From Microthyrium microscopicum (Eukaryota): a DNA stretch of 64,000 nt. Location: NCBI GenBank assembly GCA_010405405.1, contig MU004238.1, positions 1,623,530 to 1,687,529 on the forward strand, in the 5' to 3' direction. Of the stretch, positions 24,912-64,000 are shown piece after piece. Every line of letters starts with the position of its first letter. Positions within the stretch are counted from its first letter, which is position 1. Position numbers and translations under genes: made by a program. The notes below the pieces were generated by a model. The model did not search any database. It saw only the letters and a list, made by a program, of their open reading frames with translations, and was not told the origin of the DNA.

Positions 24912-25670
24912 TCAATTCAACGCCTTTTTATCGAGAATTCGACCTTCTGCCGAAACAAATGACGCATTGAACTGCACCGGAATAGCAATCGTGATGCGAT
25001 CGCGCCACTTTGCATCGCGATTCAGCAACTCCATAACCATATCACGACAATGGCCAGCATGCAGCGCGCTCTGGAATCGTGCATCAATCACCGTACCCAA
25101 CTCCCACATGCGCACATACTTTTCCCACGAGAAGATGCAGTGCGCGATATGCCAGCCATAAGTCGTCGCAAACATGTCATTGTGCTCCGCCAGTAGCTCC
25201 ACCTGGTCAATGGTCATTGGCTTGGAACCATTGGCGTTGGCGTACATTTGCCAGCTCTTGTCGGGCAGGGGTCCAGCTTCGTTGAATTGCTTGGTCAGTT
25301 CGTCGTCGCGGCAGTAAGGCGGTAGCCAAGAGGCCGATAGCCCGTCGTATTTGCAGCCGAGGGAAAGTGCTTCGGCTATGCTCTTGCCGCAGTAACACAC
25401 GCTGAGACCTGGGTCGAGCATGCGTGGGTGGCAGTCGGCTGGAGAGAAGAGGCGGTATACTTGGAAGACGAGAGACCAGAAACCCCAGAGGGCGAGGACG
25501 ATGCAGGTAATGCGGCCGACGGTGATGAGAATGCCCCTTCGCTTGATGGCGGGTGTTGGGTATGGGCTCTCTTTGAGAAGCTCTTCGTTCTCTTCGTTAT
25601 CCATGCTGAATGCTTCTTCTTCGAGGGAGGAGTATTTGGTTTTGCGAGGAATCCCGAATAGCTTGACCAT
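24912..25670 (-). CDS. membrane-anchored twin-HxxHC oxidase, DUF3328/UstYa-like
   Basis: KYSSL..E..LL N-terminus, one TM helix, CGKSIAEALSLGCKYD..SASWLPPYCRD, then WHIAHC-x25-HAGHC. Confidence 0.75.
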   Translation of the reverse strand: MVKLFGIPRKTKYSSLEEEAFSMDNEENEELLKESPYPTPAIKRRGILITVGRITCIVLALWGFWSLVFQVYRLFSPADCHPRMLDPGLSVCYCGKSIAEALSLGCKYDGLSASWLPPYCRDDELTKQFNEAGPLPDKSWQMYANANGSKPMTIDQVELLAEHNDMFATTYGWHIAHCIFSWEKYVRMWELGTVIDARFQSALHAGHCRDMVMELLNRDAKWRDRITIAIPVQFNASFVSAEGRILDKKALN

Positions 25671-26651
25671 GGTTTTGATGGGTTTCGTTGCTGCGCACTT
25701 TAATATTAGCTGCGCTGTTCGCTAAGATTGTACTATATATTATAGACTGAGGTTTGTCACATACCAAAATGTTATGCAATGCCGCTCTTCAAGATGTTGA
25801 TACTTTGAGGTTTAACTGTGTGGAGTTAGGCTTTTGGAGGGACCAAGTTGACATCAGGATGAAGTCAAATGTAATGTCATCAATCCTTTTGAAAGTTCTA
25901 GCTTCACTTTAACTTCTTAGATTTATAGCTAAGAAGGGAATAGCGCAATGGAAGCCTGGTGACTTTCACCCTTACTTCACTTTTTGAGAGCCTGAAGTCA
26001 AATATACGCATTGGTGTTTCCGCTTTTGGCTTGGAGTGCCTCGAGAGCTTTCTCGAAGCAGGTCGCCAACACTCGACCACACCTGCAATTTCTCAGCACG
26101 CAGCTAGATGATGCTCGAAGGTGCTCTCAGGTATCATGCGGTTATGCTAGCGGCAAAATAGTGAATTCTGAAACTATCCGCGACCTGAAATCTCTCAGTG
26201 ATCAAGCACGCCATGATCTCAACACCACGCTATACCACGATAGATCTGAAAAATAACGCAATACTGCCACATGGCGCCGCGTGGTCACCACGTCCTTTCC
26301 TACCGCAGAGCCTCGCTAACCTCAAGCAACGTTGACGCAATATCAATTGGCTATCATTGCTCTCGCAACCTCAACAACAGCTCGTGCAGTTGCTCACGAG
26401 CCCATACCGCCATCACATATCAACCACCTTCAGCATGACGCTAACAATCGCATCATCACAATTTCGTCACTGATCGAGGGCCTGTGCTCTGGTTCAGTTG
26501 GTATAAAGCCAAATGGATTCTCTGCCATAATTCTTCTTCTTCACCATCCTTTAAATATACTCTTCCGAACACCAACAACCATTCCACATTTTCGACCATC
26601 AAACTCTCTTACTCACTTACCTCCTTCGATCTTCTTTGATCATCTCTCATC

Positions 26652-27444
26652 ATGCATGCTCTAACCCTCTTCACCGGCTTGGCTCTTGCCTCGGCCGCCA
26701 TGTCCGCGTAAGTCTTCCAACTTCTTCACATCACCGATACCTTGCTAATACATCTCATCTCCAGACCCTTCGTAACTTGGTCTTCCGTCAAAAACTCTGA
26801 TGTCGACAAGCGTTCACCCTTCTTAACGTGGGGCGCTGTCAAAACATCTGAGGTCGACAAGCGCGATCCATTTGTGACGTGGTCATCCATCAAGGCCGAT
26901 TCTGACGCTCTTGCCAAAAAATTCGTCACGTGGTCCAGCCTCGATCAAGATCTTGACAAGGTAAGTTCTTCTGTCCAATCTTCGATGATCTTGTTCGATG
27001 ATCTTGTACTAACTTACTTGTCTCCAGCGCTTCGTAACTTGGTCTCAACTCAACTCGGAGGCCGAGTCTCTCCAAAAACGATTTGTCACGTGGTCTAGCC
27101 TCGACAAGTCCGCCGCCGCTCTGGACAAGGACACCGAGGAGCTTGCCCGTCGATTTGTCACGTGGTCCTCTCTCAAGACTGACGACGTCGAGAAGCGCGA
27201 AATCAACTACAATGACTGGAAGGCCAAGCTCTTTGGTGTTGAGAAGCGCGGCCTGGATTACTCCCCTAACGAGTGGTTGACCGCCGTCAAGCAGGAGCCA
27301 AAGCGCTTCATAACCTGGTCTTCCGTTAAGCCAACTGAGGCTGAGAAGCGCGGCGTGGATTACTCCCCTAACGAGTGGCTGACCGCCGTCAAGCAGGAGC
27401 CAAAGCGCTTCGTAACCTGGTCGTCTCTTAGCAAGGACGAATAA
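26652..27444 (+). CDS. Kex2-processed repeat protein (KEP), putative RiPP precursor, 222 aa
   Basis: Exons 26652-26707, 26765-26960, 27028-27444 (both introns GTAAGT..CTAA..CAG) join in frame. Signal peptide MHALTLFTGLALASAAMS is followed by 12 units separated by KR/KK/RR: nine F[VLI]TW cores, EINYNDW, and 2x G[LV]DYSPNEW. Confidence 0.92.
27241..27422 (+). repeat. 102-bp-period internal duplication in the KEP gene
   Basis: Copies start at 27241 and 27343; about 80 bp with 3 mismatches. Confidence 0.9.
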
Positions 27445-28940
27445 GTCAGTAAGTTTCTCCCCAGCCTTCATTTCTTCTTGGAACGTCACTAACATTTCAC
27501 AGTTCTCTTCTGCGATGACTGCTCTTCTGTAGAGCCCGGGTTGTTTGGGGGGATCGCTGGATAGGATCAGTTTTGACAGTGTGTAGTATTGCATTAGAAT
27601 TGGTACAAGGCATGTTGCGATAAATCGTCGCAACTTGAATTCCTAGGTACACTTAGTAGATCACAATAGATCTACATTTGAACGAATTTTGCTCCGTCTT
27701 TCATATGTGACGTTGACGTTTACGTTTATATGTGATGAATGATAACTTAGATCTCTGCTCTCCATTGACAAGGCTGAAGACAAGGCTGAAACATAATGGC
27801 CAGGGCAGGCACTTCAGCAAAATCAAAAGTACAAAATCAACCATTCTCCGGAAGCATTTATTGCACCACAACGAAGACATTTTTAGGAATTTTTTAACGA
27901 GTTATGGCATTATGAATTCTGCTTAATTTTAGAAGTAATCGATTATCAATCAACTATGGCTGTTAATGTTGCTCTCTAAAGTGAAGAGAAAGAGAATCGG
28001 CATATTTTTCACGTTTTTTGAACACATGAAGTTAGGAAGGTGGTCGCTAATGTAGGGCGCCTCTGCCTTACTGTCCCCAGTAATTTAGCAGGCCTCCTGG
28101 TCAACCCTGCCTCTTTATCTCAAAAAGCAAAAAATATCAGAAATCATCCATGATCATCAACTCCTACTCATCGTCAAATCATGGAAATAAAAATACTTTA
28201 GACATGCAAAAATCCATAAAAATCCATAAAAATCTAAAGTCCTATTTGGCTTCTTCTGAATGCTAACATATGGCTGATTGCGGTGTGAATAAGTGATTTT
28301 GGATTTTTGGATTTTTGGTGAAGCGGCCGCCATGAGACGTCTGTACGAAGTAGACTCAGATATTCTCATCGAACTAACGGCAAGGCACTTGCGTAAGTCT
28401 ACCCAACAGCAAGCAAGAAGGCGCGGCGAAATAAAAATGCTGTTGTATATTGATTGCTCAAGTATTTCCTTGAGATGCTGGCTCATTTTTGTAGTCCCAC
28501 TAACGATCTCGACAATTCCATGAAAGATTGGGCGTGTAGATGACCTTCGACTCCAATCTCTGATCCCAATTCCATGAAACGCGAGATCCAAATTGTAAAT
28601 ATCTCTTAACATTTCCCCGAGAGCAAGCCGGCTGGCTGCAAGCACAGCGCAGAAACAGTGCATTGAAGCACCCAGTGTAAATTCCCAGTGCACATTGGTC
28701 AAGGCATTTGTCCGTGATATCGGAGAGGCGTCTCGCAGTCAAAATGAACCAAACTGCGGCCTATGTCCAAAAGTCTCAGATCCAAAATCTCAGGCTTGAG
28801 CAGAACCGCCATTTCCACCAAATGCCTCATGTAGTATGATCACTGAGCGAAAACGCTGAGTGAACCATCCAGAATCTTCAACTGTCTCCCTCCCATTTCC
28901 AATTCCCTTATCATCCAGCGCACCACCAAAAGATATCAGC

Positions 28941-35026: not shown

Positions 35027-36674
35027 TTACAACTGCGACCAAAGCTTTGGCTTGCGGGTTTGTGGTCTTGCCGCTTTCTTCTCAGGCATTCGATCTTTTG
35101 ACTCCTCCAGTTTTGGTTTACTCGCCTCTCCTAGATTTTGGCTGTTTGTGTCTGCGCCATTCTCGCTTTCCCTCTGTTCCGTCTCTTCCGTTTCGGCCTT
35201 ATCTTCTCCGTTCATTTGTTCCTCTTCGTTGAATCTTTCTTTGGCTCCTTCTTCGGCGTCCATTTGTTCCTCTTCTTTGACTCCTTCTTTTGCTCCGTCT
35301 GCTGCTTTTGCTTCGTTAACCTGTTCATTACCCACTTCTTCCCTTGCTGACCTGATCTCATCCGTTTTGCCCGCAAGCCTCATATCGCCGTTAAGCCAGT
35401 GCCATGCAACCGTACGTGTCTCAGGAGACCGGCTGTGCAACTTTTTGGCACGCATGAACCGGTAGAAGGTTCCATGTCCAGAGGTTTTGAGCCATTCCCT
35501 TTGCTCTGGGGTCAACATGGGAAATCCATCTGGACCATATAGTGGTTGGGCGATATTTGCTGGCTGAGGGACATCTGCTGGTTGAGGGACATCTGCTGTT
35601 TGGGGGACATCTGCTGGTTGAGCGACATTTGCTGGTTGAGCGACGTCTGCTGGTTGAGCGACATCTGCTGGCTGAGCGACATCTGCTGGCTCAACGGCCT
35701 CTTGTGCTTCAACGACCTCTTGTGGTTCATCTACCTCTTGCGACTCAGCAACCTCTGCCGCGACTTCATCATCGATTTGCCGAGTCTCAATTCTATCGCG
35801 CAGATCCAAGGTATTAGTATCTTGATTCATGTCGTCTTGCGGTACATGAACTGAAATTGCACTGTTCTGAGCAGCACATTTTAGACCTGCGCCATCATCA
35901 GCAGCTGAAATTATCTCAAGCGAGACAATTATACGCTCACCTCGCGACCAGCATGCACTTTCAGCAGAACTTATCGTATGTGGTCTTCGCAAACACGACT
36001 TTGTCCACTTGGGACCATGTGGATATTCCAAGAGCTTCAAGATGCGCGAAATGGGTTGGTCCTTGGAAGATACTTCACCTGAAACACTCTTATCAGAGGC
36101 GCCTCCATCAGAAGCAGTTCCATCTGAGGCATCGTCGTCCGAGCCATGTTCATATAGAGCAGTCTCATCTTCACCATCTTCACCTATCGCATCTTCCACC
36201 AAATCAGCTTCCTCCATCGCAGCAACATACTCCCTCGTAACCGGATCTCTAAGGCCAAGTCCCAAGCTACCTTCCACGCACACCGGCGCGAAGTCTGGAG
36301 CCTTCGAAGCAATGATATTGAAACGTAGTGAAGGAACATGGAGAACGTTGTGTAGAACCAAAGAGTGAGATGCATTCGGCAGCCATCGGTATGGAGTCCT
36401 TTGGACTGGTATCTCCACAGTGCCAACCGCTATAACTTTGTGTTTATTAAGGTTGAAGCACTGTCTTCTAGATCCAATCAAGGTATAGGACCCTGGAGTA
36501 AACCAGTCTCTGTCATTGGTTGCACTGGACCTGTTAGTTTGGGTATTGGGGTGGAGGTGCTGGAACTAACTGGAAGTAGTCTTTGGACGAGACGACCCAA
36601 TCTGGATTCAGCGGGACTGGGAAGTCCGTCCAGTCCATTCGTTTTGGATGTCTTGTGGAGATATTATCCGACAT
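35027..36674 (-). CDS. protein with degenerate Ty1/copia protease-like (Pol beta-barrel) N-terminal domain and acidic/repeat tail
   Basis: Exon 1 (36674-36571) and intron 36570-36525 give PDWVVSSKDYFHATNDRDWF..VIAVGTVEI..LVLHNVLHVPSLRFNII. Confidence 0.6.
35543..35692 (-). repeat. 18-bp coding tandem repeat, 8 units (QPADVA/QPADVP)
   Basis: Directly visible, e.g. ACATCTGCTGGTTGAGCG repeated on the + strand. Confidence 0.95.
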
Positions 36675-48827: not shown

Positions 48828-49819
48828 TCTTGATATCGATATGCGAGTCTGAGCCGCCTAGTACGCCCCTCTCAACCAGATGACTGAAGACAGTGCACAT
48901 TGAGGCAGTAGTGTAGTCCCCCGATTTGCGAAGGGTGCGTATATCCAGCAGGAATTGTCGAGATAAGTTACCTTTTCAGCTATTGAAGAGGTGAGAAGTG
49001 AAAAGGGGGCCTTTTAACGTCAACCATACTGTCATTCCCTAAATTGGAATAGTTGTGAAAGTCAGGAACTATGGGTTAGTAGTCTGGAACAACAAGGTCT
49101 TTTGACCTTTAGGGAACTCTCCGCCAAACCTAGGCGTAATATCAATCCTAACCGGATGGGAATCGCAAGAATTGAGCGAATGCCAGGATATCGGATGCGG
49201 GGTCATCAATAGGCATCACGAAAGTGCCCTATAAACCAAAGACGGCCCAGATATTCGATAGAATAGCCTAGGTAAATCGTAGAGATCCATGAAATAGAGT
49301 TCGTTTTGAGCTGTTGTTACTGGTCGAGTAGGCGTATATCTTGGCAGCAAGTCTTAACGGAGCTAACCAGGAGATGATCAGATCAATCAACAAGCGCTTG
49401 AGCTAGGCGAGAGAAAACAGGATTACATCGCGTAAAATAGCCTGTGTCTTCAGATAGTGGTTCATGAAGAACTATTCGTGGTCGGGAGGATTACACGACT
49501 AGAAACGTGTCTGAGCCTTGCAGATGGTCTGGCCCTAGATGCAAAATGGGATGTTGATTGGTTCGCATGGCTGAAAACACTTTATCTGAAGCTGGCAGGA
49601 TTGACAACTGGCGAGCAGTTCGTCGGTTGACGGGACGATGATCCGGCGCAGAAGCATATGACGGCGTTTTATATCCTATATCATTGGCTATAAAGACCTA
49701 TAAGTAGAAGGACTGTCAATCTTTGTATCTGGCTCTAATTAAGAGTCTCAGGCTGTTTGACTCGAGTGAGCTTGCCTCCAATCAGATACTAGGATGTGTA
49801 CGCTCCCTTAAAACACTTA

Positions 49820-49894
49820 CCCATCGGTTAAGAATACGATCGCCGTAGGCGATCAGGGACACCTCAACGAGGAGGATACCTCAACGAGGACTCT
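49820..49894 (+). repeat. left TIR with two 17-bp internal direct repeats GGA[C/T]ACCTCAACGAGGA
   Basis: Reverse complement of 53122-53196. Confidence 0.95.
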
Positions 49895-52800
49895 ATTTAC
49901 TATAGATTACTAAATAATTAATCCTATACGCAAATTATGATATTATTTAATGTAATTAATATAGGATGTGCCTATAGTACTATTCTATAACTAGTATCAA
50001 TTTTAGTAATTAATATTAACTTTTAGGGTGTGATCCTATGTAGTAATTAAGTTGCATAGAATATACAAAAATTGCAAAATCTCTTAATTTTAATAATAAC
50101 TAGAACTATCTAAAGTAAATAATATCTAAATTTTATAGTAAATATAGTAAACGACGCGTACGCTCTTATATTATATGTTAGGAAGCGTTAAAGTCCTAAA
50201 TAGTTAGTAGTACTTTAAGATTAATATCTTCATCGTTAGAACTAGCTAAAGACTAATATTCTTTATTAGTAATTATATCCAAATTATTTAGCGCTTTATT
50301 ACTATGGCGTACTTTAACAAGATCTATAGGAAGCTAAGGAAGAGTAAGAAGCTATAAATTAGGACACTATTTAATTAATATATCTCTCTCGTAATTGTAC
50401 TTAGGGCGATTAATTCCTATACCTAAAAGGTTACTAAAATACTACTACTAAGGGTAGGTTTAAGGGCAATACTACTATAGTAGAGCAAGATCTTTAAACT
50501 ATAGTAGTAGTAAGTAATTTTAATAGGGATCTGCCTATTCGTACCTTTATATCTTTATTATCTCTTCGTCCTTAGTAGCGCGCATATTTAGAGGCTTAAT
50601 TTCTTCCTTTTTAACTCTTATTTTACGCTTCTTCTTTAATAGCTAAGATCTCTTAGCTACTACCACCTAAGATACTTAAACGAGAGTAATTTTAGGCTTA
50701 GAATCCTTAAGATCTACGAGTTATAAAGCTTTTAAAGCTTTCTTAATAGTAGCATTCTTTCGTCTTATAATAATACCCTAAAGATTAGTCTAATTCTAGT
50801 TAGTAGCCTTCTTAAACGACTCAACGGTAAAGTAATGGAAGAGAGAGGGATAGACGTAATCATAGAGAGCGAGTTAATAAAGAAGCTATGGATCTATAAT
50901 ATAAGGTCGAATTCTATGCTAGGTATTTAGTAATTCTGACGAGCTTATAATATTACGATCTTAAAGGTCTGTAGCGTAGATAAATCTACCTTTTTAAGTC
51001 TATTTCCTAGATCTAGATTTTATCTATTTATTGTGAAGTTAAGCTAGATATAAGTTAAAGTAATAATTAATTAATTACGTATAGAGAGAGGCTATTGCTT
51101 TAGTAGCTATTAGGAACGTCTTCCTATTTATTCTTCTCTATCGCTATAGATCTATAGGAACTAGAGATGCTAAAGAACGATCCTATAATTGTACCTATGT
51201 TAATATCTCTTTAAAGATCGTTAAATACGCTAGAGGAAGCTAAATCTTAGGTAATTCTATAGCTTTAAGTATTATAGCACGTCTTCTAAACTTCTAAGTC
51301 TTCCTATTCTAATTAGGGTATGTTTTTAGGCCTGCTAAAGGATCTACTATAGGTATGCAATTAAGTATTAGATAAAGATTAAAGGGTACTATTCCTATAC
51401 GTCTCTAGGTACTCTTAATGTTATTTTTAGTAAAGGTTTAAGATCTAATATGCTTAATTACGATAAAGAAGTATTATTTATTAAAATTAATAATTCCTTA
51501 ATAGGCGTAGGTATTAATTACCTCTAAATATTAGTGTTTTTATAGTTAAAAGATACCAACATCTAATAGTTATAGGAAGTGCGTTAAATATAGAGGTAGA
51601 AGTAATAATTTAATCTTATTTAGCTTATAGAATAGTATAAACTAGTAGGTAAGATAGCTTTCGTATTCGTTAATTATTAGAAGCTGCTAGTAAGCCTTTT
51701 TTCGTGCTTAATCCTTTAGCTAGTGTTGCTTTAAGAGTCATTAAAAATGCTATATCTAGATAAATCCTAGGTAGTTATTTGAATAACTACTATCTAACAC
51801 TACTATAGCGAAGTTAGTACTCTAGATTTAGTAGTTTTAAAGCTATTAACTTATTAATCACGATATCTCCTAATATAAGTCTATTAAACCAAGATTTTAA
51901 GATAATACAGCCTTTAGTAATAAGAAGAGGCGTAATAGTTCTTCTACTAGTAGAATAGGCTTTTACGGATATTAAATTCTCTTAATTATTGAGCGATTTA
52001 ATATAATTATAATAGCTACTAAAGAACTCGCGATTATTAGGCATAACTACTATCTAGCCTCTTCCTATACTAATTTAAACGTTTATTTTATCTATATTCT
52101 ACTAATCTTTGGTTAGAATGTTGTATTTATTAATTATCTCTTTATAATCTTAATAGAACTTAGTAATGGCATCTTTATTCATTGCCTACTTGCGAGTAGC
52201 TTTAATAGTAGGTTAAAATCGTAGAGCAAAAGATAAGCGCTTTATCTAACGGCGAGCTTATTTTAAGCTAACTTAAGGTCAATTTTAGAAGGGAATTTTA
52301 TCAATATTGAGAATGTCTCGTTATAGGATCTTATTTGCAGTATTCTATATAAGCTTAACCTAAATAAGGACCCTAATCTTTGCTATAAGGTCAAGATATT
52401 GCTTTAGGGTGCTTTCTTACGCTTTAGAGAGCTTTTATTAGTTTAATTTACGTAAAGAATAAGATCTAGCACGACTAGTATATCGCTAGTAGAGTCATTT
52501 AGGTAGAATTAGAGAGAATTTGGCGGCTAGGGTATTCTATGTAGTTTTAGGCTAATTATCTTTAAATTTTATAGCTTTTTTAATAGTCGTTTCTTTATCT
52601 ATATAAAACGCGCGATTTTGCTTCTTTTGCTAGGTTTTTAAAGGTATATTAGTAGTAGTAGAAATAATTGTTAAAGTAGTAAATTATTAAAAGAGCTAGA
52701 ATTATTATGTTATAGGTAGTAGAACTAGGACTACTTCATTATATAAAGTTAGATTTACTAAGAGGGCCTAAGCGTTAGATTCCTATTTATTATAACTACT

Positions 52801-53121
52801 TTGCTAAAAGTATATATTATTTTCTAAAAATTTAGTAGTGTGTTTAGACGGGTATAAATAAAGTTTAGTAAAAATATGAAAATTATTTAATAGTTAGTTA
52901 CTAAGTAGTTATAAAGAACGTATAGAAATCTAGAAATACCGACCTAATCCTAAGTTAAACTAATGATACTCAACTATTCATACTTTAGCTAGATTTTAAG
53001 ATATAATTCTTAAAATAATATAGGATTTATAGCTCAAGCTATGGAATATAATCCCTCTTTTAAAATTTAAAAATATCACGTTTTAGCTACATGGTAGCTA
53101 TATAAAGCAAAGGGTACAGAA

Positions 53122-53196
53122 AGAGTCCTCGTTGAGGTGTCCTCCTCGTTGAGGTGTCCCCAATCGCCTACGGCGATCGTGTTCTTAACCGATGGG
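53122..53196 (-). repeat. right TIR
   Basis: Reverse complement of 49820-49894. Confidence 0.95.
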
Positions 53197-53696
53197 TAAT
53201 CCATGTGTATTTACTCAATGAGGTACAAAATCGGGAAGACTGACCTATCGGGTAAGGCAACAGGCAGTATCCATTACCAGTCAACTGGTAGCGTATAGTG
53301 CGTCTTCATTACGTTGCAATTCTGTCAAGTGGACATTAATAGTATTGCATTCATACTCTATGCTCATCGGTTATCTACCATCGGTTTGAGGTGGATCTAT
53401 CCATCTGATTGAGAACAGCTTACAGTATGTTCCGTGTGTTTCCCTCAGTAAAAAGCATACTAGATGCATAGAGTTTCGAAATCAAAGCGATAGTCGACTG
53501 GGAAAAATCATATCTATTCATGGGGGTATTTTGAGAGATCGACAACTAAGGATAGGCAAACGTCCTATGAACCATTCAAAAATATCGGCAAGGGCCGAAG
53601 TATGCTCGGAAACGCCACGCTTGTTTATGCGGAAGGATCAAATCGATGTCGGATAGTTCCTTGAGCTAAGGAACTGCTGGGGTTGGAGTTTCGAAT

Positions 53697-61544: not shown

Positions 61545-64000
61545 CTACAGCCGGAAAGATGTTTCTGGTGCATACACCAGCATTTCGACAACATTGACAA
61601 GCTCATTCAACTTGCTATCCACGAACTCACTGCATGCTTGTTCGCCTTGAATCCCCAAAACCACTTTCCCTGCTTCGACATAAGAGACGATTTTCCAAGG
61701 ATTCGGCTTTTCGGAATGTGGAATTTGATAATCTACCTGCGCAGTAGTATCTCCTAAAGCCATGGTGTCGAAATAGTCGACCTCTTGGTGATGAACGATT
61801 GATGAGAAATCGGTGTCTTGCGACCATTCAGGACATAGGTTTCTGATACTCTTCAAGCCAATGATTTCGTGCTGTAAATCATCCACCCTGCTTTGCTGTA
61901 CAGCTAAAAGTAGTGAAGAATGGGATTTGAGGTTCTTCAACTCAACCCGGACTGGTACAATACCATAGCAAGGACCAGCGACCTGCTCAATTTCGGGAAG
62001 AGGCACGCTTCTTCCGTTGACAACAGCACCGAACACTACGTCGTGGAGACCCTGCGAGCGTGCGAGTACGATGGCCCAGGCGACAGTGAGAATGGTAGCT
62101 AAAGTGAAGTTTCCAGGGTTTGAGGGAACAGAGCAGGCTTTTGTAAGGAAAACAGTCCCAGCCGCGGCACTGGATCCACCAAGCTTGTCAAGCACTGTCA
62201 TTTGTGAACCATTAAGTTTTTGTTTCCAATAGGATTGAGCAGCTTGCTTTGATTCGCCGTTGATATAGTGCATATATCTGGAAAATGGGATGGATTGAGG
62301 TAAGATTGCTCCGCCATATGTCGTATTAATATGACGAACCAATTCTGACAGCGAAACTCCATCGTACTGGGCGTGAGATATCCTGAACACCAGTGCCTGT
62401 TTGGATGGGCCGCGGATGAAGAAGAACCTGAGAAAGCTAGAGCCCAAGGCAAATTCAGACTCGATATCGGCCTTGCAGAGCTTATTGCAGTAATTGGCGA
62501 CATCTTCTTTCGTTTCATGCTTTTCTCTGGGAGCTTCTAGATTTTGCAGCACAACTTGAAGGTACGAACCTTCATTTTTCACAAAGACTGTCCGCAAAAT
62601 CTCATAATGATCGACAAGGTCATCGCATGCCTTTGCTAGTCGGGCCAGATCGATAGAGTGGTCGAAGTAAAATATGTTGTACTGGACTGAACTACGCGGT
62701 CGACGAATTGTCGCATTGATATCCATGTCTTGAGTGTCGGATACCGGCAGAGCATCAGCAATATCCCAATTGTGGTTCTCCAGTAATGAAAGGATTTTGG
62801 TTTCGGCAAACTTTGTTGAATTGGAGAGCTTAAGCAAAGAGAATGGTATTATTTTCGCCTTCGGTAATTCCTCTTCCGAAGATAAGCTGGTAAGACCCAA
62901 GGCCATTTCTCTGAAATGCATTCGACGGAAAATATCGGCGACACTCAAACTATAGCCAGAAGCCCGTACAATAGAAACAAGCTTCATCGCTATTATGGAG
63001 TCTCCACCTATTTGGAAAAAGCTATCATTGGGCTTGAAGTCCTTAGATTCTAGACGAAGAACTTTCTGCCACGCTCGACGAAGAACTGCCTCTTTTTCCG
63101 ACTCCGGAGCTTGTGAAGTCGATTTTTCATTCATGTGCATCCTTTGATCATCATCAGGCTCTTGAGCCACTGCCTTCTCTATTGACCGACCCTGGTTAAT
63201 GATAATAATAGAGCCATCATTGTCGTATCTCGCCAACGCTCCTGTTTTGGAGAGACGACCAGATCGCCCAGATATTGCGCCATGTCCTTTGATGAGCCAT
63301 GACGGGTCTTGAATGGTATTTGTGGACTTAATAGGGCCTTCCAGATGTAGTTCACCAACGAAACCAATTGGGGCAAGCTTTTCATTGTCAGAAAGATGCG
63401 TGATCCACGGCACAACAACTTTCGAAAGTCGGGATTCCTCCTTGGAATTCAAAGTTGAAACGACTATGTCGTTCGTCGCTTCATCCAGTCTAGCAGGAGG
63501 TATGGCATTCCAGCTCCAGATTTGAGAAAGATCTGCATGAGACATCAAACTGACATCATGAATCAGACTATCGTGTGACCCCAAGAGTTGTTGTGTGGCA
63601 ATCTCAAACTTATCCAAGATACGCTCCATTGATTTAACAGAAATGAGGCCAGAGTCGAAGCTGGCATGTACTACAATGTCCGTTGAGCGCAAAGCACAGG
63701 CTATCATCAACGGATAAGAATTGAACTCTATGGCCTCTTCGGCAGGATCACCTCCTTTCGCAAGGAATATATTCGAACTTGGAATAATTTCATCGTCAGA
63801 TGCAGGCTCGAAAGGCTGGATAACGAATCCTGTTTTGATCTCACAGGCAAGCTGCAAATCCGAACTCAAGCGGCGAATATATTGTAACCCAGTATGCTCA
63901 TGTGGTATTCTTGTAATAGCCTCAGTATGAATGTTATGTAGATAATGGCTGCACGAAATTGCAGGATCAACAGATATCTTGACTGGCACTGTCGTAATCA
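61545..64000 (-). CDS. NRPS 3' part: end of C, degenerate A, T, terminal C; SidD/NPS6-type extracellular siderophore synthetase (5' end outside window)
   Basis: ITTVPVKI (C), APIGFVGELHLEGP and KTG..ARY (A remnant), DSFFQIGGDSI (T), ISHAQYDG (C); frame open to the window edge. Confidence 0.85.
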   Translation of the reverse strand, partial: ITTVPVKISVDPAISCSHYLHNIHTEAITRIPHEHTGLQYIRRLSSDLQLACEIKTGFVIQPFEPASDDEIIPSSNIFLAKGGDPAEEAIEFNSYPLMIACALRSTDIVVHASFDSGLISVKSMERILDKFEIATQQLLGSHDSLIHDVSLMSHADLSQIWSWNAIPPARLDEATNDIVVSTLNSKEESRLSKVVVPWITHLSDNEKLAPIGFVGELHLEGPIKSTNTIQDPSWLIKGHGAISGRSGRLSKTGALARYDNDGSIIIINQGRSIEKAVAQEPDDDQRMHMNEKSTSQAPESEKEAVLRRAWQKVLRLESKDFKPNDSFFQIGGDSIIAMKLVSIVRASGYSLSVADIFRRMHFREMALGLTSLSSEEELPKAKIIPFSLLKLSNSTKFAETKILSLLENHNWDIADALPVSDTQDMDINATIRRPRSSVQYNIFYFDHSIDLARLAKACDDLVDHYEILRTVFVKNEGSYLQVVLQNLEAPREKHETKEDVANYCNKLCKADIESEFALGSSFLRFFFIRGPSKQALVFRISHAQYDGVSLSELVRHINTTYGGAILPQSIPFSRYMHYINGESKQAAQSYWKQKLNGSQMTVLDKLGGSSAAAGTVFLTKACSVPSNPGNFTLATILTVAWAIVLARSQGLHDVVFGAVVNGRSVPLPEIEQVAGPCYGIVPVRVELKNLKSHSSLLLAVQQSRVDDLQHEIIGLKSIRNLCPEWSQDTDFSSIVHHQEVDYFDTMALGDTTAQVDYQIPHSEKPNPWKIVSYVEAGKVVLGIQGEQACSEFVDSKLNELVNVVEMLVYAPETSFRL

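Follow-up and report, generated by a model that had tools for sequence, protein, structure and literature searches.

Within the 64,000 nucleotides of Microthyrium microscopicum DNA analysed here (the window), one short gene encodes nine peptide units built on the motif F[VLI]TW, and the question raised by this locus is what becomes of these units: whether they leave the cell as linear peptides, or whether a side chain is first modified and, if so, by which enzyme and through which residue. With moderate confidence, we favour as the best reading a minimal two-gene dikaritin-like pathway with Trp-centred oxidation, in which the second gene is an unannotated neighbour of the first. Should the peptides prove linear, the locus would be a further orphan Kex2-processed repeat protein (KEP) of modest interest; should a ring between Trp and a C-beta be formed, this would be a new reaction for the DUF3328 copper enzymes in a small two-gene study system.

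The precursor and its twelve units

The precursor gene is read from the sequence as three exons on the forward strand with a continuous frame of 222 aa. Exon 1 (26652..26707) encodes a putative signal peptide, hydrophobic from residue 3, with a mean hydropathy of 1.96 over 11 aa and several sites of the -3/-1 type, as judged by hydropathy and by rule. Predicted intron 1 (26708..26764; 57 nt, GTAAGT...CAG) is followed by exon 2 (26765..26960), where cores 1-4 are found at 26769, 26820, 26871 and 26922, preceded in order by AP, KR-SP, KR-DP and KK. Beyond predicted intron 2 (26961..27027; 67 nt, GTAAGT...ACTAAC...CAG), exon 3 (27028..27444) holds cores 5-9 at 27031, 27082, 27154, 27307 and 27409, three units containing both Tyr and Trp, and the stop codon. 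Each of the two introns has a GTAAGT donor, a branch-like CTAAY site and a CAG acceptor. The Tyr+Trp units, likewise on the forward strand, are EINYNDWKAKLF (27199..27234), which contains EINYNDW, GLDYSPNEW (27250..27276), and GVDYSPNEW (27352..27378), an internal duplicate of the second. A further intron is predicted from sequence in the 3' UTR (27449..27502, +), 4 nt past the stop codon, and the paralog on contig C12 has one at the same place.

All nine F[VLI]TW units read exactly as they were first written in an earlier note on this DNA, and all lie within the one gene. The sites before them are KR (four units), RR (one), KK (one) and X-Pro (three); the three units without a directly preceding dibasic site do indeed carry the X-Pro dipeptides AP, SP and DP. 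That the gene encodes a Kex2-type repeat precursor is also supported, the repeat units being set between dibasic sites: against the three or more similar units between KR, RR or KK sites by which KEPs are defined, we count nine F[VLI]TW units, three Tyr+Trp units and 11 dibasic sites. The product is probably a secreted protein that is cut into 12 short Trp-containing peptides. It has no Cys, and neither the Cys pair nor the repeated X-A/X-P spacers of an alpha-type mating pheromone are present, a single X-Pro preceding only 3/9 cores. The description of the cores as Tyr-free applies to the nine F[VLI]TW units but not to the precursor as a whole, since 3/12 of its Trp-bearing units contain Tyr.

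F[VLI]TW occurs nine times in the precursor region, compared with a mean of 0.006 and a maximum of 1 in 1000 base shuffles of that region, and is absent from the remaining 63 kb of the window. Among the nine cores, 94/132 differing codon pairs at codons 1-6 are synonymous and 115/191 pairwise base differences in the same codons fall at third positions, pairs that are not independent of one another. Since the differences lie mainly at third codon positions, it is the peptide sequence that appears to be under selection, and from this pattern we take the nine units to be kept by purifying selection. The residues that follow the core had been described as variable; this is not simply so, because positions 5-7 are [SG]-[SAQ]-[VIL] in 9/9 cores, and the conserved unit is therefore one of seven residues.

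Precursors of this kind enter the ER and are then cleaved by Kex2 and Kex1 in the Golgi. A genome search identified one gene with a Kex2-type P-domain and three DPPIV_N genes, and Ste13-type trimming of KEP peptides is documented in PMC9769878. The earlier note held that all nine cores converge on a free N-terminal Phe. Kex2 cleavage and X-Pro trimming would indeed expose Phe in 8/9 cores, a count that presupposes cleavage at the single KK site, but unit 1 requires in addition that the signal be cleaved behind Ser18, and six positions in all are compatible with the -3/-1 rule (13, 14, 15, 16, 18 and 19, the last being excluded once Pro at +1 is counted).

Six sequencing runs contain this DNA, none of them recorded as RNA, and transcript evidence comes from a comparison of three, namely X5, taken as RNA by guess, and two DNA runs. 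One X5 contig over the precursor gene joins 26179-26951 to 27018-27307 with no mismatches; the 66 nt skipped (26952-27017) have GT...AG ends on the minus strand, and the joint is missing from both DNA runs. The best reading of this contig is a spliced antisense transcript on the minus strand (26179..27409), as judged from the intron ends, given that X5 contigs convey neither strand nor level and represent one run and one condition. Its intron overlaps sense intron 2 with a shift of 9-10 nt. The donor of each of these two introns is the reverse complement of the branch-site region on the other strand, and a literature search on such near-coincident introns found nothing on point. Sense intron 1 is retained in the contig and splicing of sense intron 2 was not seen; sense splicing is therefore predicted, not observed.

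An alternative is that the sense gene is unexpressed or in decay, and that the function lies with the antisense transcript, which once spliced has an open frame of 200 aa. In favour of this, the minus-strand form alone is spliced among the contigs over the gene, and the minus-strand frame is open for 200 codons. We regard this as highly improbable. The sense frame is intact, and read on the sense strand the cores differ mostly by synonymous base changes. The minus frame stands in codon register with the sense frame, as the shadow cast by a genuine gene usually does, and the peptides that it encodes vary freely; contigs, moreover, lose rare forms, and one run samples one condition.

An unannotated neighbour with paired HxxHC motifs

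Immediately upstream, and head-to-head with the precursor gene, lies an unannotated single-exon gene (24912..25670, minus strand) for a candidate oxidase of 252 aa. The two genes are separated by 981 bp (25671..26651), which from the coordinates could be a bidirectional promoter. Sequence, model and profiles together give the protein a transmembrane segment at ~46-64, a CGxS...GC motif, and HxxHC motifs beginning at 174 and 204. This gene is covered in full by a second X5 contig, which ends in adapter sequence at 25956 and hints weakly at transcription of the gene.

Pfam returns no match for the protein; PF11807 gives none up to an E-value of 10, and the curated cut-off is not reached. Nor do its relatives fare much better, as 3/40 match PF11807, with a best E-value of 0.011. 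The subfamily being mostly below PF11807, surveys based on Pfam would miss it. Its motifs are nevertheless well kept: two HxxHC motifs (residues 174-178 and 204-208 in the neighbour) are present in 39/40 aligned family rows, their spacing is 25 residues in 34/39, and H174, H177, C178, H204 and C208 are invariant in the alignment of 40. The family is intron-poor and shares the motif CGx[ST]xxEAxxxGCxFD.

An alignment-based model (mean pLDDT 74.8) places a disordered N-terminus before a transmembrane helix (model helix 45-75, at high confidence, around a hydropathy peak at 46-64) and sets the HxxHC motifs on adjacent helices (171-191 and 202-216); folding of the single sequence gave a pLDDT of 45 and was not usable. 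The model suggests one N-terminal transmembrane helix with a C-terminal domain that would be lumenal. PDB structure searches with this model produced no clear match, and no DUF3328 protein was among the matches listed, a result that implies neither a new nor a different fold.

Several comparisons connect the family to UstYa/DUF3328 proteins, all of which lean on the HxxHC motifs and are not independent of one another: profile-profile alignment over the two motif helices gives a probability of 76% and an E-value of 2e-5; when the family profile is run over 4370 translated pieces, four canonical UstYa pieces rank directly below its own members; and a UstYa profile scores at least 8 bits for 32/40 family proteins against 0/200 shuffled sequences, and 7.2 bits for the neighbour itself against a shuffled maximum of 5.5. 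The Atlas relates the neighbour to UstYa at 0.84, which we treat as a lead only. It is by motif and remote homology, and not by the Pfam cut-off, that the neighbour is distantly related to the UstYa/DUF3328 oxidases, which depend on copper. Where a dikaritin locus calls for a DUF3328-type gene near the precursor, what is found here is such a gene at 981 bp, recognised in that same way and not through Pfam.

PMC12435403 describes DUF3328 proteins as enzymes of the lumen that are anchored in the membrane, use two coppers and O2, and act on C-H bonds, C-beta being a frequent site, and CctR as a di-copper, O2-dependent C-H hydroxylase in an organelle lumen; that lumen is a compartment on the route of the precursor. 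CctR, ApnU and AprY share with the neighbour a disordered N-terminus, one transmembrane helix and a lumenal helical domain with HxxHC(x)nHxxHC (PMC12435403). The neighbour differs from them in belonging to a separate intron-poor subfamily, with the CGx[ST]xxEAxxxGCxFD motif and a 25-residue motif spacing.

A profile built from six family members recovered 38 proteins among 2023 candidates, those that are named being from ascomycetes. The genome contains five family matches, the neighbour included, which are invisible to Pfam, in addition to 22 PF11807 matches at ~12 loci. In a tree of 45 family proteins a long branch carries the neighbour together with one relative; a grouping of linked versus unlinked family genes in this tree was equalled by 43/500 shuffles and, given the long branches round the neighbour, was set aside.

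Related loci and linkage

Searches for orthologs of the precursor used exon 3 alone, and because intron-split fungal genes are sparse in the collections, their outcome does not make the gene unique. None of 196 candidates from a word-indexed protein search was an ortholog, a full HMMER search over 1.84 billion representatives gave two matches, both unrelated bacterial repeat proteins, and in a metagenome scan 0/291 pattern matches were confirmed. Insect neuropeptide precursors retrieved from the Atlas (best score 0.80, low recognition) resemble the precursor in architecture only and were rejected. A term search did not find the genus Microthyrium in the available text of Umemura's Table S2 (PMC7329392).

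At 633-641 kb on contig C15, two family members enclose a canonical UstYa gene and another that is UstYa-like, along with a GFA-like gene and the gene for a precursor of five EG-VVTWADVSKR units, none with Tyr. Elsewhere in the genome this precursor matches only the window precursor, in exon 2 (E 0.003). This cluster is compact (L033:3351 to L034:1117). A metagenome scan for the family confirmed five loci among 127 pattern matches, three of them distinct. One, recovered from two samples (L062/L063; L063:7743-17400) and belonging to another fungus, combines a family member with a canonical UstYa gene, P450 and FAD-oxidase genes and a precursor of nine ...DAG-FPEWIKKR-type units with DA/DP spacers and no Tyr; the others, L064 (20 kb) and L061/L065 (<4 kb), show no precursor. 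In the Microthyrium genome itself, the family members on C1 and at 32 kb on C12 belong to another branch and have no precursor within ~5 kb. In Cladophialophora carrionii the family members OCT49183 and OCT49186 bracket OCT49185, adjacency here being deduced from the accession numbers, and Table S2 of PMC7329392 catalogues OCT49185 among the KEPs that have DUF3328 close by. At C15 and in Cladophialophora alike, the two family genes of a cluster fall into separate subclades, and their pairing may therefore be old.

With the window left out, 2/6 other distinct loci (C15 and L062/L063) thus have a repeat precursor beside a family gene. None turned up in 20 control stretches, each of 10 kb, or in the remaining 54 kb of the window; the numbers are small, and the loci are unequal in length. 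These counts bear on the alternative that the units are linear secreted peptides, signals or antagonists, which receive only Kex2, Kex1 and Ste13-type processing while the neighbour is a bystander or acts elsewhere. In its favour, linear products are common among KEP peptides, and there are documented cases of Ste13 trimming in KEPs with Trp (PMC9769878); a DUF3328 gene lies near only 22% of KEPs (PMC7329392), and no precursor is seen at the remaining 4/6 family loci. We nonetheless consider linear peptides unlikely, for the linkage exceeds that of the controls, the two genes of the window are placed head-to-head at 981 bp, the precursor lacks the Cys pair of alpha-type pheromones (PMC6339444), and a DUF3328 gene is hardly ever found next to pheromone KEPs (PMC7329392). 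Precursor and neighbour quite probably form one modification pathway.

The related precursors also show which features of the core are shared. Aligned on Trp, the cores read FVTW, FLTW, FITW, VVTW, FPEW, YNDW, YIKW and WSKW, and the position three before Trp is hydrophobic in all of them (F, V, Y or W, across four precursors); Thr is not kept (FPEW), position 2 may be Pro, and Phe may be Val. As far as these sequences indicate, the common signature is hydrophobic-x-x-Trp, and a free N-terminal Phe is particular to the window locus. As a conserved feature the N-terminal Phe does not survive the comparison, for at C15 the EG spacer is followed by V, and in the metagenome precursor F comes after ...DAG, a spacer that X-Ala/X-Pro trimming would not remove entirely. 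The spacers before the C15 and L063 cores end in Gly, and X-Pro directly after the signal peptide recurs in the C12, C15 and L063 precursors, without Phe next. Convergence on N-terminal Phe is plausible for the window locus, yet it is not a family signature.

The Tyr+Trp units point to a second relationship. A paralogous precursor of 313 aa on C12 (497.5-498.5 kb; L007:1022-2010) lies head-to-head with a canonical UstYa gene and is identical to the window precursor over the ten residues NYNDWKAKLF, with four synonymous differences; this marks the window's own Tyr unit as a core under selection, and the window precursor looks, from its sequence, like a mosaic of two unit types. The paralog has eleven units (YNGGW, YDGGW, YNDW, YNEF, YYW, YIKW and four WSKW among the types), a KSKVGD tandem repeat in its leader, and a reductase-like gene ~3 kb beyond it. 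Shared upstream 12-mers and a likeness of the 3' UTRs between the C9 and C12 loci fell short of E 0.05 in blastn and were dropped as evidence.

It could accordingly be argued that only the three Tyr+Trp units are modified, by a Tyr-ether or Tyr-Trp bond, and that the F[VLI]TW units are linear or are repeats that bind the enzyme. The conservation of NYNDWKAKLF in a paralog that has its own canonical UstYa would agree with this, as would the plant precursors in which Phe in the recognition sequence anchors copper cyclases (PMC12186524). F[VLI]TW, however, accounts for 9/12 units, each flanked by its own cleavage sites, and the C15 and L063 precursors carry Tyr-free repeat units among HxxHC genes, so that we judge a restriction to the Tyr+Trp units quite improbable and retain the F[VLI]TW units as substrates. 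Canonical UstYa genes are present also at C15 and L062/L063, and any ring formed there could therefore be the product of these genes; none is found near the window pair.

Across the genome, most PF11807 loci show no repeat precursor to a simple detector. Examined individually, 9/11 canonical UstYa loci lack a convincing one, and three were flagged, one of them a chance WQQR repeat, with the proviso that short or intron-split precursors would escape this detector. Some 5 kb from a UstYa gene on C7 (~760 kb), a secreted-looking protein (L055:4919-5976) ends in four RKR-YF[AK]G[TS][ED]YIA repeats behind a long non-repetitive domain.

Proposed chemistry and known systems

We lean towards a modification pathway centred on Trp. 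Because the nine cores lack Tyr, Trp is the sole redox-active side chain in them, and a C-beta partner would come from the residue three before it. In the pathway that we propose, the neighbour would bind two coppers and oxidise hydrophobic-x-x-Trp cores, joining the C-beta of residue 1 (Phe in the window, Val at C15) to N1 or a ring carbon of the Trp4 indole; Kex2 and an X-Pro dipeptidyl peptidase would free the N-terminus and further proteases would trim the acidic follower. The product would be a three-residue-spaced ring like those of the plant stephanotic and cercic acids. The Tyr+Trp units, as a second unit type held in common with the C12 precursor, may be processed by the same enzyme or by a canonical UstYa acting in trans. 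Among specific products, the one with a link from the C-beta of residue 1 to the indole of Trp4 seems the likeliest by analogy, and we put it forward tentatively. The earlier note had expected a chemistry different from that of Tyr ethers, such as a Trp-Phe or Trp-Val link; Trp-centred chemistry has since been backed by two other loci, but a Trp-Val link at position 2 becomes less likely because that position is Pro in FPEW cores.

The analogy is chemical and does not denote membership of a class. In stephanotic acid (QLIVW) the C-beta of Leu2 is joined to C6 of Trp5, and in cercic acid (QILFW) the C-beta of Ile2 to N1 of Trp5 (PMC11253845); in both, a copper enzyme links residue i with the indole of the Trp at i+3, as proposed here, and the four-His plane of CctR has been likened to BURP sites (PMC12435403). 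The plant products differ in that they are made by unrelated BURP enzymes and have an N-terminal pyroglutamate.

The same two genes might carry out another reaction on Trp, such as hydroxylation, desaturation, halogenation, oxidative folding (to a pyrroloindoline, for example) or formation of an aryl-aryl bond, and make no ring between residue 1 and Trp4. DUF3328 proteins are described as performing halogenation, hydroxylation, macrocyclisation and isomerisation (PMC12435403), the type of reaction is not readable from two HXXHC motifs (PMC12871659), a biaryl-forming DUF3328 enzyme is cited in PMC13185096, a copper oxidase reportedly makes an aryl-aryl bond in a minimal ribosomal product, and the paired members from different subclades at C15 and in Cladophialophora suggest a division of labour. 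The i to i+3 spacing to Trp recurs, however, in four precursors, where position i is taken by F, V, Y or W, and Val rules out an aryl-aryl bond at C15. We rate such other Trp chemistry as somewhat unlikely.

Among characterised fungal pathways, asperipin-2a (aprA/aprY of Aspergillus flavus) is similar in pairing a repeat precursor with a single UstYa-type oxidase, in its Phe-first core (FYYTGY) and in using a Phe C-beta as crosslink site, the bond being a Tyr-O to Phe-C-beta ether (PMC6514808, PMC12186524). The window differs in that its nine cores offer Trp, and no Tyr, as the aromatic partner, that no counterpart of the aprT transporter or the aprR reductase is recognised beside the pair, and that its oxidase has no PF11807 match. 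With the dikaritins ustiloxin, phomopsin, epichloecyclin and victorin the locus shares a putative signal peptide, Kex2 sites, a multicore precursor and a double-HxxHC neighbour (PMC7329392, PMC12048977, PMC10540207, PMC9233826); in the accessible accounts none of these four uses Trp, and the window precursor is distinguished further by its two unit types. The victorin ring joins Phe and Leu (PMC9233826), so Tyr-free cyclisation is known. Neither a Tyr-free ring (Phe-Leu in victorin) nor a Phe-first core (asperipin-2a) is thus without precedent, and in the same accounts the side-chain-cyclised peptides of fungi form their rings via Tyr, or via Phe in victorin. Asperigimycins are reportedly Trp-containing fungal RiPPs made with several DUF3328 enzymes. 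Our literature search brought up no paper on FVTW-, VVTW- or FPEW-type cores, motifs looked for as such in the searchable text of two supplements, and no fungal hydrophobic-x-x-Trp core family tied to this oxidase subfamily, although KEP supplements may list similar cores and a Trp-linking DUF3328 may have been published.

Precursors with a Ste13 signature, including those of alpha-type pheromones, likewise have KR/RR/KK sites and X-Pro after some of these, and a signal peptide of the kind that is putative here (PMC6339444, PMC9769878). The window precursor departs from them in having a single X-Pro at 3/9 cores, no Cys, acidic followers that are left after Kex2 cleavage, and an HxxHC neighbour.

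How the locus is classified depends on which definition is applied. A classical Tyr-core dikaritin, with an aryl-ether ring, has Tyr in its core, whereas here 9/12 units are without it and 3/12 contain it. Of the original five-gene set, no tyrosinase, methyltransferase, transporter or peptidase gene is recognised among the 25 window ORFs and three flanking frames, from which intron-rich small genes may escape, and in the same material no transporter, reductase or peptidase gene is recognised adjoining the pair. The genes otherwise found beside the pair are of the housekeeping kind (MDM10, an L10-insert protein, Med9, kinases and cutinases). Later definitions drop the five-gene requirement, and the wide definition asks for a precursor with a double-HxxHC neighbour (PMC12048977). 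On sequence grounds, the locus would be counted as a KEP, as far as this is testable, and as a dikaritin in the wide sense, and not as a classical Tyr-core or five-gene dikaritin.

A bolder extension, which we consider rather doubtful, is that the Pfam-invisible double-HxxHC subfamily defines a branch of fungal ribosomal peptides, hitherto unrecognised, with hydrophobic-x-x-Trp cores and rings from the C-beta of residue 1 to the Trp4 indole, an independently evolved counterpart of the stephanotic and cercic acids. The window would be its smallest form, with one precursor and one enzyme, and the precursor would also contain core peptides that belong to a second pathway, whose genes are on a different contig. 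As the subfamily lies below the Pfam cut-off, surveys that ask for 'DUF3328 nearby' would sort such loci as unmodified, so that fungi may have more pathways for modified peptides than have been counted.

Three further features of the window were recorded. An NRPS fragment with carrier-protein and condensation domains in Pfam runs towards the window end (61545-63707, minus strand); it lies 34 kb off, beyond the housekeeping genes, and was not counted as a member of the pathway. An orphan frame without a Pfam match (35027-36565, minus strand) has ~10 repeats of the QPA[DN][VI]A type and an acidic tail. Finally, an AT-rich, stop-ridden segment (49817-53199) is bounded by terminal inverted repeats of 78 nt that are 95% complementary, and looks like a decayed DNA transposon.
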